A stretch of 20,599 nucleotides of DNA, from IMG/VR virus record IMGVR_UViG_2541047903_000005. The stretch is one strand, 5' to 3'. Of this stretch, positions 10,912-18,001 are shown one piece after another (positions within the stretch are counted from its first letter, which is position 1; each line of letters begins with the position of its first letter). The notes beneath the pieces were generated by a model. That model was not told the origin of the DNA, did not search any database, and worked only from the letters and a program-made list of their open reading frames with translations. The stretch comes from a virus. Its lineage: Duplodnaviria; Heunggongvirae; Uroviricota; Caudoviricetes. A program made the translations under genes and the position numbers.

Positions 10912-13900
10912 ATGGGAAAAGGTGGCGGTAAGGCACACACGCCTCGTGAGGCGAAGGATAATCTCAAATCCACGCAGATGATGAGTGTGATTGATGCGAT
11001 TGGTGAGGGACCGATAGAAGGTCCGGTGAAGGGACTGCAGAGTATTCTGGTGAACAAAACCCCGCTGACGGACACGGACGGTAATCCCGTGATACACGGT
11101 GTGACTGCGGTCTGGCGTGCCGGGGAGCAGGAGCAGACACCACCGGAAGGCTTTGAGTCCTCCGGAGCTGAAACCGGACTGGGCGTGGAAGTGACGAAGG
11201 CAAAACCGGTGACGCGCACCATTACGTCCGCGAACATTGACCGCCTGCGGGTTACCTTCGGGGTGCAGTCACTGGTGCAGACCACGTCAAAGGGCGACCG
11301 TAATCCTTCCTCTGTCCGGATTCTGATTCAGTTACAGCGTAATGGCCGCTGGGTGACGGAAAAGGATGTCACCATTAACGGCAAGACCACCTCGCAGTTC
11401 CTGGCCTCGGTGATTCTGGATAATCTGCCTCCCCGGCCCTTTAACATCCGGATGGTCAGGGAGACGGCGGACAGCACCACGGACCAGCTGCAGAATAAGA
11501 CGCTGTGGTCGTCATACACCGAAATCATCGATGTGAAACAGTGCTACCCGAACACGGCCATTGTGGGGCTGCAGGTGGATGCGGAGCAGTTCGGCGGCCA
11601 GCAGATGACGGTGAACTACCATATCCGCGGTCGCATCATCCAGGTGCCGTCAAACTATGACCCGGAAAAACGCACGTACAGTGGTATCTGGGACGGCAGC
11701 CTGAAACCGGCATACAGCAACAACCCGGCCTGGTGTCTGTGGGACATGCTGACTCACCCGCGCTACGGCATGGGAAAACGTCTGGGGGCGGCGGATGTGG
11801 ACAAGTGGGCGCTGTATGCCATCGGGCAGTACTGCGACCAGACGGTCCCGGATGGTTTCGGGGGGACCGAGCCGCGGATGACCTTTAATGCGTACCTGGC
11901 ACAACAGCGTAAGGCGTGGGACGTTCTCAGTGATTTCTGCTCTGCGATGCGCTGTATGCCGGTATGGAACGGCCAGACGCTGACGTTCGTTCAGGACCGT
12001 CCGTCGGATGTGGTGTGGCCGTACACCAACAGCGATGTGGTGGTGGATGATAACGGCGTGGGTTTCCGCTACAGCTTCAGTGCCCTGAAGGACCGGCACA
12101 CGGCAGTGGAGGTGAATTACACCGACCCGCAGAACGGCTGGCAGACCTCCACGGAACTGGTGGAAGACCCGGAAGCCATACTGCGCTACGGACGCAACCT
12201 GCTGAAGATGGACGCGTTCGGCTGTACCAGCCGCGGTCAGGCCCACCGTGCCGGGCTGTGGGTGATAAAGACCGAACTGCTGGAAACGCAGACGGTGGAT
12301 TTCACGCTCGGGTCACAGGGGCTGCGTCACACACCCGGTGACATCATTGAAATCTGTGATAACGACTATGCCGGGACCATGACCGGCGGACGTGTCCTGT
12401 CCATCGATGCCGCCAGCCGTACCCTGACGCTGGACCGGGAGGTGACACTGCCGGAGACCGGCACGGCCACTGTTAATCTGATTAACGGCAGCGGTAAGCC
12501 GGCGAGCGTGGCCATCACCGCACACCCCGCGCCTGACCGGATACAGGTCAGCACCCTGCCGGATGGTGTGGAGACATACGGTGTGTGGGGACTCTCCCTG
12601 CCGTCACTGCGTCGTCGCCTGTTCCGCTGTGTCTCCATCCGGGAAAACACGGACGGCACCTTTGCCATCACGGCGGTGCAGCACGTACCTGAAAAAGAAG
12701 CCATCGTGGATAACGGGGCCCGCTTTGAGCCGCAGTCAGGCACCCTGAACAGCGTTATCCCACCGGCAGTGCAGCACCTGACGGTGGAGGTGAGCGCAGC
12801 TGACGGTCAGTATCTGGCACAGGCGAAATGGGACACGCCGCGGGTGGTGAAGGGTGTGCGCTTCAGTCTGCGTCTGACCAGCGGAAGCGGAGAAGACAGC
12901 CGTCTGGTGAGCACCGCCATCACCGCAGACACGGAGCACCGTTTCAGTGGTCTGCCGCTGGGGGAATACACCCTGACGGTGCGGGCCATTAACAGCTACG
13001 GCCAGCAGGGCGAACCTGCGACCACCACCTTCCGGATTAACGCGCCTGCAAAACCCGCCACCATTGAGCTGACGCCGGGGTATTTTCAGATAACGGCGGT
13101 ACCGGTGCTGGCGGTGTATGACCCGACGGTGCAGTTTGAGTTCTGGTTTTCGGAAAAACGCATCACGAACACGGCACAGGTGGAAAAATCTGCCCGTTAT
13201 CTGGGGACCGGCAGTCAGTGGACTGTCCAGGGCGATCGGATTAAGCCGGGGATGGATTTCTGGTTTTATGTGCGCAGTGTCAACCTGGTGGGCAAGTCTG
13301 CATTTGTGGAAGCCAGCGGGCAGGCCAGCAATGATGCAAAAGGGTATCTGGAATTTTTCCGTGGTCTGATAGATGAGACGCTGCTGGGGCAGGCACTGAA
13401 AAAGCGCATTGATGCGTCAGCCCTGCGATCGGATGTCACTCAACTGGAAGAGAATATCGGACAACTGGAAGAAGACATCCGTCAGCGGATGGACACGGAT
13501 ATTGCGGAAGTGACCCGGAAAATCGGGGAGGCGGAAAACAGCCTCACGCAGCTGGTTGCGAAAAAGAATGAGGATCAGACGCTGGCCATCGCGCAGGTGA
13601 GTCAGAAAGTGGACCGTGTCAGCAGTGAAATCTCACAGACGGTCAGTCAGAGCAGTGAGGAAAATACCCGACAGATAGCACAGGTCCGTCAGTACGTGGA
13701 CAAAAAGCAAAGTGAAATCAAGCAGACAGTCAGCCAGGGCCAGTCAGAAAACGCCCGACAGATAGCACAGGTCCGCCAGTACGTGGATAAAAAAGGGAGT
13801 GAAATTACCTCGACCACGGATAAAAAGCTGGGTGACCAGGCCGTGACCATACAGCAAATCCAGCGGGTTCAGTCAGACACGCGCAATGAGCTGAATGCCA

Positions 13901-14712
13901 TGTATATGCTGAAGGTGCAGAAAACAAAAAACGGTATTCCCTATGTGGCCGGGATTGGTGCGGGGATTGAGGATGTTGATGGTCAGACCCTGAGTAACAT
14001 TCTGCTGCAGGCCGATCGCATTGCGATGATTACCCCGGAGAACGGCAACACCACGCCGCTGTTTGTGGCGCAGGGGAATCAGCTGTTCATGAACGACGTG
14101 TTCCTGAAGCGACTGTTTGCGGTGAGCATCACGTCATCCGGCAATCCTCCGACGTTTTCCCTGACGCCGGATGGCAGGCTGACAGCCCGCAATGCGGATA
14201 TCAGTGGAGCCATCACGGCGAATACCGGCACGCTCAATAATGTCACCATTAACGAGAACTGTGTCATCAGAGGGAAACTGTCTGCAAACCAGATTGAAGG
14301 CGATCTCGTTAAAACAGTGGGTAAGGCTTTCCCTCGTGACTCCCGTGCACCGGAGCGTTGGCCATCAGGAACCATTACCGTCAGGGTTTATGACGATCAG
14401 CCGTTTAACCGGCAGATTGTTATTCCGGCGGTGGCTTTCAGCGGTGCCAGACATGAGCGGGAGAACAGCGATACTTATTCGTCATGCCGCCTGATAGTGA
14501 AGAAAAACGGTGCTGAAATTTATAACCGTACCGCGATGGATAATACGCTGGTTTACAGTGGTGTTATTGATATGCCTGCTGGTCGCGGCCACATGACGCT
14601 GGAGTTTTCTGTATCAGCATGGTGGGTAAATGGCTGGTATCCCACAGCAAGTATCAGCGATTTGCTGGTTGTTGTGATGAAGAAAGCCACTGCAGGCATC
14701 ACGATTAGCTGA
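10912..14712 (+). CDS. J: Central tail fibre / host specificity protein J (tip attachment protein)
   Basis: 1266 aa; N-terminal and central regions match recalled lambda gpJ ([91 protein letters not shown]); includes a coiled-coil expansion and a C-terminal receptor-binding region. Confidence 0.95.
13624..13830 (+). repeat. In-frame tandem repeat, 87-bp unit, about 2.3 copies, inside J
   Basis: Unit starts at 13624, 13711 and 13798 (agtgaaat...); encodes repeated 29-aa units SEI.QTVSQ...[13 protein letters not shown]. Confidence 0.75.
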
Positions 14713-14779: not shown

Positions 14780-15379
14780 ATGCGTAAATTATGTGCTGTT
14801 ATTCTGTCCGCAGTAGTCTGGCTGGTTGCCGCTGGTACGCCAGCGAGCGCAGCAGAGCATCAGTCCACACTAAGCGCCGGGTATCTTCAGACCCACACTG
14901 ATATGCCAGGAAGCGATAATCTGAACGGGATTAACGTGAAATACCGTTATGAATTTACGGACACGCTGGGGCTGATTACGTCTTTCAGTTATGCCGACGC
15001 AGAAGATGAACAAAAAACGCATTACAGCGATACCCGCTGGCATGAAGATTCCGTGCGTAACCGCTGGTTCAGCGTAATGGCGGGGCCGTCTGTGCGCGTG
15101 AATGAATGGTTCAGCGCGTATGCGATGGCGGGTGTGGCTTACAGCCGTGTGTCGACTTTCTCCGGGGATTATCTCCGCGTAACTGACAACAAGGGGAAAA
15201 CGCACGACGTGCTGACCGGAAGTGATGACGGTCGCCACAGCAATACCTCTCTGGCGTGGGGGGCTGGCGTGCAGTTTAACCCGACCGAATCCGTGACCAT
15301 TGACCTTGCTTATGAAGGTTCCGGTAGTGGCGACTGGCGAACGGATGCATTTATTGTTGGTATCGGATACCGTTTCTGA
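14780..15379 (+). CDS. lom: Outer membrane protein Lom (Ail/Lom/OmpX-family beta-barrel), prophage moron
   Basis: 199 aa; signal-peptide-like N-terminus MRKLCAVILSAVVWLVAAGTPASA; matches recalled lambda Lom (SAGYL, INVKYRYEFTDTLG, WGAGVQFNPTESV, ending GYRF); lies between two terminators. Confidence 0.9.
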   Translation: MRKLCAVILSAVVWLVAAGTPASAAEHQSTLSAGYLQTHTDMPGSDNLNGINVKYRYEFTDTLGLITSFSYADAEDEQKTHYSDTRWHEDSVRNRWFSVMAGPSVRVNEWFSAYAMAGVAYSRVSTFSGDYLRVTDNKGKTHDVLTGSDDGRHSNTSLAWGAGVQFNPTESVTIDLAYEGSGSGDWRTDAFIVGIGYRF

Positions 15380-15518: not shown

Positions 15519-16665
15519 TGGTGGAAAAGTATGACAGTAAAAATTTCTGGCGTGCTTAAAGATGGCACAGGAAAACCAGTACAGAACTGCACCATTGTGC
15601 TGAAGGCCAGACGGACCAGCAGCACGGTGGTGGTGAACACGGTGGCCTCTGAAAATCCGGATGAAGCCGGGCGTTACAGCATGGATGTTGAGTATGGCCA
15701 GTACAGCGTCACCCTGCTGGTTGAAGGTTTTCCACCTTCACATGCCGGGACCATTACCGTCTATGAAGGTTCCAGACCAGGTACGCTGAATGATTTTCTC
15801 GGTGCCATGACGGAGGATGATGCCCGTCCGGAGGCACTGCGCCGTTTTGAGCTGATGGTGAATGAAGCGGCACGTCATGCCGGAGCGTCATCACAGAGTG
15901 CAGCGGCGGCAAAGAAATCCGAAACGGCAGCAGCCTCATCGAAGAATGCAGCGAAAACCTCAGAAACGAATGCAGCTAACAGCGCACAAGCGGCAGCGGC
16001 CTCGCAGACTGCATCGGCAAACTCCGCGACAGCAGCCAAAAAATCAGAAACCAACGCGAAAAATAGCGAGACAGCCACAAAGGCCAGCGAAAAAAACGCA
16101 AAATCCAGCCAGACGGCAGCGAAAACCAGTGAGACGAATGCCAAAGACAGTGAAGCCAACGCAAAGGTGAGCGAAACAGCGGCGGCGAACTCGGCGAAAG
16201 CATCGGCAGCAAGCCAGACGGCAGCAAAAGCAAGTGAAGATGCTGCCAGAGAATACGCAAACCAGACAGCAGAGCCGTACAGATATGTTTTACAGCCGCT
16301 GCCGGATGTGTGGATACCCTTTAATGATTCGCTGGATATGATTACGGGCTATTCTCCGGGTTATAAAAAAGTGAAGATTGGTGATAATGTGGTTCAGGTT
16401 GCCAGTGATAAACAGGTTAATTTCAGTCGCGCATCAACGGCAACATATATCAACAAATCTGGCGAACTGAAAACGGCGGAAATTAATGAGCCACGATTTG
16501 AGTGTGATGGCCTGCTTATTGAGGGGCAAAGAACGAACTTCTTCCCGAACAGTACAGACCCTTCGAAGTGGAATAAGTCAACTTCACTGGACGTTACAGA
16601 AACAGGCACAGATAGTTTCGGGTTTAATTATGGCCGGTTTGTCGTACAGGATTCGATTGTTGGTA

Positions 16666-16670
16666 CAAGT
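16666..16670. repeat. Target-site duplication CAAGT (left copy) flanking IS2
   Basis: CAAGT directly abuts the IS2 end at 16671 and recurs at 18002-18006 next to the other end. Confidence 0.8.
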
Positions 16671-16681
16671 TGGATTTGCCC

Positions 16682-17587
16682 CTATATTTCCAGACACCTG
16701 TTATCACTTAACCCATCACTGGCCCACTGCCGCAGATATTCCCGTGGCGAGCGATAACCCAGCGCACTATGCGGATGCCATTCGTTATAATGCTCGAACG
16801 CCTCTGCAAGGTTCTTTGCTGCCGTTAACCCGTCTGGTTTGGGCATGATACTTATGTAGTCACGCTTTATCGTTTTCACGAAGCTCTCTGCTATTCCGTT
16901 ACTCTCCGGACTCCGCACTGCCGTGTTCTTCGGTTCAAGTCCCAACATCCTGGCGAACTGACGTGTTTCATTCGCCCGGTAGCATGAACCATTATCCGTC
17001 AGCCACTCCACTGGAGACGCCGGAAGCTCGCTGCCAAAGCGGCGTTCCACTGCTCCCAGCATGACGTCCTGTACTGTTTCACTGTCGAAGCCACCCGTTG
17101 TGACCGCCCAGTGCAGTGCCTCACGGTCACAGCAGTCCAGCGCGAACGTGACCCGCAGTTTTTCTCCGTTATCACAGCGGAACTCAAACCCGTCAGAGCA
17201 CCATCGCTGATTACTTTCTTTCACAGCCACTCTGCCGGTATGTGCCCGTTTCGATGGCGGTACAGCGGGTTTTCGCTCAAGCAACAGCGCATTCTGGCGC
17301 ATGATCCGGTAAACACGTTTGGCATTGATCGCAGGCATACCATCAAGTTCTGTTTGTCTGCGAAGCAGCGCCCATACCCGACGATAACCATATGTGGGTA
17401 GCTCTCCGATAACATGGTGTATACGGCGAAGCACATCCGTATCATCCGTGTGACGGCTGCGGCGGCCGTCCTTCCAGTCATCGGCTCGTCTGAGAATGAC
17501 GTGCAACTGCGCACGCGACACCCGGAGACAACGGCTGACGAAGCTTACTCCCCATCCCCGGGCAATAAGGGCGCGTGCGCTATCCAC
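16682..17587 (-). CDS. insD: IS2 transposase OrfB (InsD), DDE integrase core
   Basis: 301-aa ORF recognised as IS3-family transposase orfB; normally expressed as an InsCD fusion by -1 frameshift. Confidence 0.9.
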
Positions 17588-17910
17588 TTTTTTGCTCGCC
17601 CATATTCAACGGCTTCTTTAAGGAGTTCATTTTCCATCGTTTTTTTGCCGAGCAGACGCTGGAGTTCTTTAATCTGCTTCATGGCGGCAGCAAGTTCAGA
17701 GGCAGGAACGACCTGTTCTCCGGCAGCCACAGCAGTAAGACTTCCCTCCTGGTATTGCTTACGCCAGAGAAATAGCTGGCTGGCTGCCACACCATGTTGC
17801 CGGGCAACAAGGGAGACCGTCATTCCCGGTTCAAAGCTCTGCTGAACGATAGCGATCTTTTCCTGTGTAGTACGCCGTCTGCGTTTCTCCGGCCCTAAGA
17901 CATCAATCAT
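17545..17910 (-). CDS. insC: IS2 transposase OrfA (InsC), helix-turn-helix DNA-binding protein
   Basis: Starts [25 protein letters not shown]; the ORF-track ORF extends upstream to 17955 but the recognised start is the Met at 17908-17910. Confidence 0.85.
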
Positions 17911-18001
17911 CTGTTCTCCAATGACTAGTCTAAAAACTAGTATTAAGACTATCACTTATTTAAGTGATATTGGTTGTCTGGAGATTCAGGGGGCCAGTCT
18001 A

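Follow-up and report, generated by a model that had tools for sequence, protein, structure and literature searches.

A long helical shaft, probably built from 29-residue units, in the tip attachment protein J of a lambda-like Escherichia coli prophage

Cryo-electron microscopy of phage lambda located an alpha-helical shaft (AHS) at residues 809-861 of its tip attachment protein gpJ, between an FNIII clamp and a beta-prism (PMC11101478; PDB 8IYK/8XCI/8XCK; Ge & Wang 2024). Upon binding to LamB, residues 841-861 of this shaft become beta-strands, residues 809-840 are remodelled and the fibre folds back, so that the tip comes to lie 13.2 nm from FNIII, against 29.7 nm before (PMC11101478). The lambda shaft acts in this way as a relay between receptor binding and tail opening. 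A longer version has been described in the J homologue of F2-type pyocins, whose "exceptionally long" AHS was solved as a three-stranded coiled coil (PMC13455828). The J protein, its shaft and the existence of long shafts in J homologues are all, then, already known. Outside this family, a 29-residue repeat composed of four heptads plus a skip residue was reported to form the segmented coiled coil of SF-assemblin (PMC2119799). Here we analyse a DNA stretch of 20,599 nucleotides (IMG/VR virus record IMGVR_UViG_2541047903_000005; hereafter the window), whose gene J (10912..14712, plus strand) was delimited from its open reading frame (ORF) and translation and encodes a tip attachment or central tail fibre protein of 1266 amino acids (aa). 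The shaft of this protein (13336..13902, plus strand; aa 809-997) comprises ~189 residues, about 3.5 times the 53 residues found in lambda.

The J protein of lambda has 1132 aa, which leaves a surplus of 134 residues in the window. A phmmer search against PDB chains aligned J 1-836 with lambda 1-838 and J 975-1265 with lambda 840-1131, and therefore the entire surplus falls in a single block without counterpart in lambda (aa 837-974; 13420..13833, plus strand), located at about lambda residue 839; the split against chain 8iyk_J agrees with a multiple alignment including lambda and the E13 allele. Q, S, E, V, T and K abound in the block, and both halves of the lambda shaft are kept on its two sides, J 807-836 corresponding to lambda 809-838 and J 975-996 to lambda 840-861. 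An AlphaFold2 single-chain (monomer) model, for which the input alignment comprised 14 alleles and model residues 19-207 represent aa 809-997, gave for this stretch a helix that is continuous save for a break of one residue, with a pLDDT mostly above 90. These results bear out an earlier note, prepared from the letters alone, which had described a J longer than that of lambda with its extra length between the FN3-like and the C-terminal regions (the block lies between PF24489 and PF09327), and whose interval 13380-13900 (aa 824-997) matches the helical shaft almost exactly. On both strands of that interval, no ORF of at least 80 aa other than J and no inverted repeats were found.

The internal organization of the shaft is dominated by a period of 29 residues. 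Self-similarity scored with BLOSUM peaks at lag 29 (z=12.6 versus shuffles), with secondary lags at 11, 18, 22, 40 and 58. At the DNA level, Tandem Repeats Finder reported a period of 87 bp over 13624-13793 (2.0 copies, 84% matches, score 247), and an ungapped comparison of copy 1 (13624..13710, plus strand; aa 905-933) with copy 2 (13711..13797, plus strand; aa 934-962) showed 77% identity with the J frame maintained; a third unit starts as SEIT and degenerates thereafter. Without copy 2, self-similarity persists at lag 29 (z=7.5) and at lag 58 (z=4.8). Moreover, the Fourier spectrum of hydrophobicity peaks at 3.625 residues, that is 29/8, with a power of 136 reached by none of 1000 shuffles (95th percentile, 81). 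When the sequence is written in a register of 29 residues, core residues at positions 1, 12, 15, 19, 22 and 26 recur in five successive units (aa 853-997), and a sixth one upstream also fits. Among them we find two older and degenerate units (13468..13641, plus strand; aa 853-881 and 882-910), in register with the duplicated ones and conserving I12, V15, V/I19 and L/I26, and a last unit (13816..13902, plus strand; aa 969-997) whose aa 976-996 correspond to lambda 841-861. Both the similarity at lag 29 surviving the removal of copy 2 and the peak at 3.625 argue that the shaft is a rod of about six degenerate 29-residue units and not a series of plain heptads.

The reading offered by the earlier note is largely correct, and several of its claims can be made more precise. 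The in-frame 87-bp tandem repeat is real, its estimate of ~2.3 copies is a fair one given the degenerate third unit, and, in agreement with the coiled coil proposed in the note, a long helix with hydrophobic periodicity of the coiled-coil type is predicted. The term "heptad-like" holds only approximately, the periodicity being 3.625 instead of the 3.5 of a plain heptad. Similarly, the 87-bp duplication does contribute to the extra length, but with only 29 of the 134 residues; the remainder consists of older degenerate 29-residue units and of a 7-residue unit, which arises from a 21-bp tandem duplication (QLEENIG/QLEEDIR; 13441..13482, plus strand; aa 844-857) with 16 of 21 positions identical (76%).

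Altogether, the J of the window is quite probably a trimeric central tail fibre with a lengthened AHS, built by old in-phase duplications of 29-residue units. According to this proposal, the shaft would connect the beta-prism and the receptor-binding domain (RBD) with the FNIII clamp that lies below the tail tube, as a three-helix bundle like that of lambda, the 134-residue insert sitting between the two kept halves of the lambda shaft. A parallel trimer is suggested by both lambda and the F2-pyocin J homologue. Each 29-residue unit would provide eight core positions, equivalent to four heptads plus a skip residue. Coiled-coil theory associates a periodicity of 3.625 with nearly unsupercoiled helices, and the trimeric bundle is accordingly predicted to be nearly straight. 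The 87-bp repeat would represent the youngest duplication of one 29-residue unit and the 21-bp duplication the addition of one heptad, both presumably generated by out-of-register recombination or replication slippage, and both would have persisted because the hydrophobic seam stays in phase when 7, 11, 29 or 58 residues are inserted. At ~0.148 nm per residue, the predicted shaft would measure ~28 nm versus 8 nm in lambda, and the distance from FNIII to tip ~50 versus 30 nm; of this predicted gain of ~20 nm, the 87-bp duplication would account for ~4.3 nm and the heptad for 1 nm. Conservation of both the N-terminal cap and the convertible C-terminal segment suggests that a trigger of the lambda type is kept, with the insert as a rigid spacer. 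As the RBD would be unchanged by shaft length, the reach and the fold-back geometry of the fibre would be altered, but not its receptor specificity.

A comparison of related alleles, where shaft length was taken from the VGKS motif to YVAGIG, revealed a discrete set of length classes. The shortest shafts, of 87 aa, are those of lambda and E13 (J of 1131-1132 aa), followed by shafts of 115 aa in Stx-converting phages and Salmonella (J of 1156-1161 aa) and of 185/188 aa in CFT073, EC8 and STEC17-183 (J of 1228-1232 aa); the phages PhiR49_2 and PhiR40_1 probably belong to the latter class because their matches are 108 bp shorter than the query. Longer shafts are those of 217 aa in AR_0013 and AF57 (J of 1259 aa), 224 aa in the window, CE10 and FDAARGOS_1259 (J of 1266/1268 aa), 257 aa in NRZ14408 (J of 1302 aa), with a 174-bp tandem duplication, and 268 aa in F1022, with an extra 11-aa unit. 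The step from 188 to 224 aa equals precisely the sum of a 29-aa and a 7-aa unit (QLEENIG), and since the 217-aa class has the 29-aa but not the 7-aa unit, the two duplications were independent events. In fact, the 21-bp duplication occurs in 12 of the 14 genomes with two 87-bp copies, and it is missing in AR_0013 and AF57 and in the 1230/1231-aa alleles. A sister lineage carries the 174-bp (2x87) tandem duplication, with 90% identity, together with one or two extra 11-aa units (QLENAINREMT), as in locus L015, at the very site of the 7-aa duplication of the window. Apart from a 3-aa indel, all length steps in the long family are of 7, 11, 29 or 58 aa, whole numbers of core periods, which is read as structural filtering of the surviving duplications; such filtering would decide which of the duplications in the shaft persist. 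Within one RBD cluster, shafts of 115, 188 and 224 aa occur, and the 188-aa shaft is in turn combined with two or more RBD clusters. Shaft length therefore behaves like a module whose shuffling is independent of receptor specificity.

The same observations give some room to a second explanation, in which shaft length is selectively neutral and the duplications are merely tolerated in a permissive spacer without any effect on infection. Shafts of many lengths exist side by side and are freely recombined with different RBDs, the two-copy allele makes up just 14 of ~1060 long-shaft copies, and the copy of the window resides in a prophage whose side-fibre gene is disrupted by an insertion sequence (IS). 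In lambda, though, the shaft takes an active part in triggering, with refolding of 841-861, remodelling of 809-840 and shortening of the fibre from 29.7 to 13.2 nm, and it is therefore unlikely that a 3.5-fold longer version would be kinetically silent. Moreover, steps of 7, 11, 29 and 58 aa point to structural selection on the lengths that can be tolerated. Neutrality is the most serious of the competing explanations, and a doubtful one.

The earlier note had also proposed that the repeat could vary in copy number through slippage or recombination and so alter the length of the fibre. Counting units in homologues, as the note suggested, supports the variation itself: one unit is present in CFT073, EC8 and STEC17-183, two in the window, CE10 and FDAARGOS_1259, and the sister lineage has its own 2x87 duplication. 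No sign of ongoing slippage was found, however, the copies being 16-23% diverged and all 14 junction genomes having two copies and never three. Long-shaft J genes occur in 725 of 5426 complete E. coli genomes, with 1060 copies in total, and the junction between copies 1 and 2 in 14 of the 5426, once in each. A three-copy allele was absent from the 5426 genomes (junction query, one place per genome), and a spaced pattern of three units gave no match in metagenome contigs or species-representative genomes. The two-unit pattern was recovered in 3 of the 102 IMG/VR contigs bearing the unit and in 6 metagenome contigs, but in none of the species-representative genomes. The unit SQSSEENT...KKQ and, after it, SEIKQ...GQSENA form a pair that is common to all two-copy alleles seen.

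A contingency-type hypervariable repeat, whose 87-bp units would be gained and lost frequently by slipped-strand mispairing to produce mixed fibre lengths, is very improbable in the light of these data. It would account for an array that is in tandem and in frame, for the existence of one- and two-unit alleles, and for the additional in-frame tandem duplications of 21, 33 and 174 bp in the same shaft. Repeats of that kind are made of near-identical units and change in copy number among very close relatives, while the copies in J are just 77% (ungapped) to 84% (gapped) identical, with a longest in-register identical run of 22 nt, and 14 of 14 genomes keep two copies with one junction. Neither the lack of three-copy matches in metagenome contigs and species-representative genomes nor the recurrence of the same diverged pair in every two-copy allele fits such a behaviour.

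The two-copy allele more likely derives from one old duplication, or from import from an unsampled allele, than from continuing slippage; a single old event is favoured because the same two diverged units are shared by all two-copy alleles. After it, the array would have moved between J alleles by homologous recombination. One- and two-copy alleles are ~7% apart in their flanking DNA, and none of the one-copy genomes exceeds 93.3% identity in the left flank. At 81-82 of its 87 positions, copy 2 agrees with the unit commonly present singly in alleles of the CFT073/EC8 type, whereas the best match of copy 1 among the sampled single-copy alleles is 70/87, and no donor for copy 1 appeared in a search meant to test unequal crossover between two sampled alleles. 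Over 12782-13740 no difference separates the window from CE10 and FDAARGOS_1259, and over 13860-13980 it coincides with the CFT073 type, a stretch in which CE10-type alleles differ at 10 positions. J is visibly a mosaic here, containing a recombination patch (13740-13980) with its breakpoint in copy 2 of the repeat. A further combination is found in AR_0013, where the two-copy array is joined to a CFT073-like left flank without the heptad duplication.

Several points weigh against the proposal of a lengthened trimeric shaft built by old duplications. The trimeric state and the straightness of the long shaft are extrapolated from lambda and from the periodicity, and the structural model is that of a monomer with a pTM of 0.32. 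Glycines of the shaft, such as G943, G962 and G973, could kink the rod with no trace in a monomer model. As for its history, copy 1 has no single-copy counterpart among the sampled alleles from which it could readily be derived, and the idea of one old event is based on shared sequence and not on phylogeny. The long-shaft allele may not be under current selection here, as the prophage is possibly defective. Finally, PhiR49_2 and PhiR40_1 are the only isolated phages of the phage collection covering at least 80% of the J region, and the 108 bp by which their matches fall short fit an allele with one copy and no heptad duplication.

The assignment of the protein itself is firm. J contains six gpJ domains of Pfam, all of them in order (FNIII-A, Phage-tail_3, Ig_J, Ig_J_second, Phage_Tail_Tip and Ig_GpJ_C). 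Its hub is homologous to the N-terminus of lambda J (phmmer against 8iyk_J, 1430 bits over aa 1-836, with PF24801 and PF13550 present), and it is followed by two consecutive FNIII/Ig domains, PF24421 at aa 609-712 and PF24489 (Ig_J_second, E=3.5e-40) at aa 714-816, the second of which marks the upstream boundary of the shaft (13051..13359, plus strand). Downstream of the shaft come the central straight fibre or beta-prism domain of the tail-tip fibre (13849..14232, plus strand; aa 980-1107; PF09327, E=1.9e-24) and the RBD (14317..14709, plus strand; aa 1136-1266; PF12421, E=1.4e-37). Together with the gene context, this layout of hub, FNIII pair, beta-prism and RBD identifies the J of the window as a lambda-type tip attachment protein. 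Identity to lambda J is 74% in the hub and FNIII part, 64% in the beta-prism (aa 998-1135 versus lambda 863-1000) and 41% in the RBD. Among PDB entries, the C-terminal part of J scores better against the chain "A8 gpJ 713" (9wca) than against lambda gpJ713. Judging from its sequence, the receptor of this J may be other than LamB.

The window covers the head-tail genes of a lambda-like prophage of E. coli, and for the greater part it shares 97-99.5% identity with prophages from CFT073, CE10-like and other human isolates. J is placed between tail assembly genes and lom, an order collinear with that of the annotated CFT073 prophage, and it is followed by Ail/Lom (14780-15379) and by the N-terminal domain of the side-fibre gene stf, starting at 15531, which is of the lambda type (PF08400, E=2.8e-68). 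In this part of the window (15531-17950), stf stops at 408 aa, compared with 687 aa in the collinear CFT073 prophage. It is interrupted by an IS3-family element, represented by a minus-strand transposase ORF with rve domains (16682-17587); the best genome match has an IS600-family element at that place. The side fibre is probably inactivated, and because stf is cut by the IS element the prophage may be defective or devoid of side fibres.

This neighbouring gene bears on another role conceivable for a long shaft, that of a docking platform for side fibres. The extended AHS of the F2-pyocin J homologue carries three side-fibre trimers at a G955 kink (PMC13455828), and the window has both glycines in the shaft and a side-fibre gene downstream. 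The pyocin side fibre docking on the shaft has N-terminal OB and stem domains, whereas the stf of the window has the collar-type PF08400 of lambda, and in Ur-lambda the collar sits on the gpV/gpM junction (PMC12617516). Given this collar-type N-terminal domain, docking on the window shaft was rejected as highly implausible; the interruption of stf by the IS3-family element and the occurrence of 115-, 188- and 224-aa shafts in the same kind of tail module are equally at odds with it. Finally, an assembly artefact, for which the misassembled look of a database fragment with perfect 29-aa duplications (P0241) might speak, was discarded as practically inconceivable, since the copies of the window are diverged and the same junction recurs in 14 genomes that were finished independently, as well as in 3 IMG/VR and 6 metagenome contigs.

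If the extra reach has a purpose, access under capsule or O-antigen ranks first, as a speculative idea, ahead of neutral drift, already judged doubtful, and of side-fibre docking, which is unlikely. A more elaborate version sees the J shaft as an adjustable molecular ruler, tuned in phase-preserving steps (7, 11, 29 and 58 aa; from 87 to 268 aa) independently of the RBD so as to match the span of capsule or O-antigen that separates the fibre from a receptor in the outer membrane, and to set the fold-back geometry by which the mouth of the tube is brought to the membrane. We regard this ruler as a rather long shot; if true, extraintestinal strains with a thick coat, such as CFT073, CE10 and IAI39, would be the hosts to which the long and extra-long alleles are adapted. 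A search of a limited literature collection found no description of a 29-residue modular shaft, or of its discrete length polymorphism between 87 and 268 aa, in the J of E. coli prophages. The 87-bp duplication is a real, rare and stable length variant of a well-known fibre, and as such a modest extension of a well-studied protein. The natural alleles of 87-268 residues, with the same hub and partly the same RBD cluster, provide a ready-made series for studying how a signal travels along a bundle of 8 to ~30 nm, and the series also suits the question of whether fibre length affects receptor access under capsule or O-antigen.

For annotation purposes, the modular shaft explains the clustering of J proteins at 1132, ~1157, ~1230, 1259, 1266 and 1302 aa. 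In database searches, full-length J as query retrieved full-length alleles, and a 240-aa query only fragments of up to 418 aa. When the insert (aa 837-974) was searched with phmmer against 1.84 billion representative proteins, just 20 matches were obtained, mostly short fragments, and the insert is therefore regarded as a narrow, Escherichia-centred elaboration; among the inspected matches, the two strongest (P0241 and P0242) were J fragments and the two weakest (P0257 and P0259) unrelated proteins. The database fragment P0241 (538 aa) has two perfect 29-aa duplications, one in the shaft, with AEVTKKITASENSITELVAKKSGEQSLAI present twice, and another inside the beta-prism. A misassembly is suspected in this case, and not a real allele, because a duplication in the beta-prism would disrupt its beta-structure. 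J fragments with perfect 87-bp duplications may, in general, be assembly errors. The top-scoring full-length match, P0121 (1882 aa, labelled Bacillus thuringiensis Sbt003), combines a shaft segment identical to that of lambda with an additional domain of the bactofilin type (PF04519); its presence in a Bacillus record, being a lambda-like J, points to contamination or to a chimeric gene call.

Among the systems closest to the window J, the one-unit alleles of CFT073, EC8, STEC17-183 and the induced phages PhiR49_2 and PhiR40_1 have the same shaft family and 29-residue architecture and 93-95% DNA identity across the region, but they are shorter by one 29-aa and one 7-aa unit (1230/1231 versus 1266 aa) and are ~50 times commoner in complete genomes. 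Lambda gpJ shares with it the protein family, the domain order (hub, FNIII-1, FNIII-2, AHS, beta-prism and RBD) and the gene context I-J-lom-stf, and differs in its AHS of 53 residues, against ~189, and in an RBD only 41% identical, whose receptor may not be the same. The F2-type pyocin PyoF10/BHP1 (PDB 25vf; PMC13455828) contains a J homologue with an alignable hub (E=1e-121); the alignment stops at residue ~696 and no sequence similarity was detected in the shaft, which in the pyocin bears an insertion domain and side fibres at its glycine kink, in contrast to the collar-type side fibre of the window. SF-assemblin (PMC2119799) offers the same 29-residue period with eight core positions and shows it to be an established design for coiled-coil rods. 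Being an unrelated eukaryotic protein that forms a two-stranded filament, it is a geometric analogy without homology. A last parallel is found in the tape measure protein, whose duplications and deletions change the length of phage tails. In both cases, in-frame duplications within an alpha-helical rod would change a dimension of the virion stepwise, with the difference that the tape measure sets the length of the tube during assembly, whereas the rod of J is the external fibre itself.

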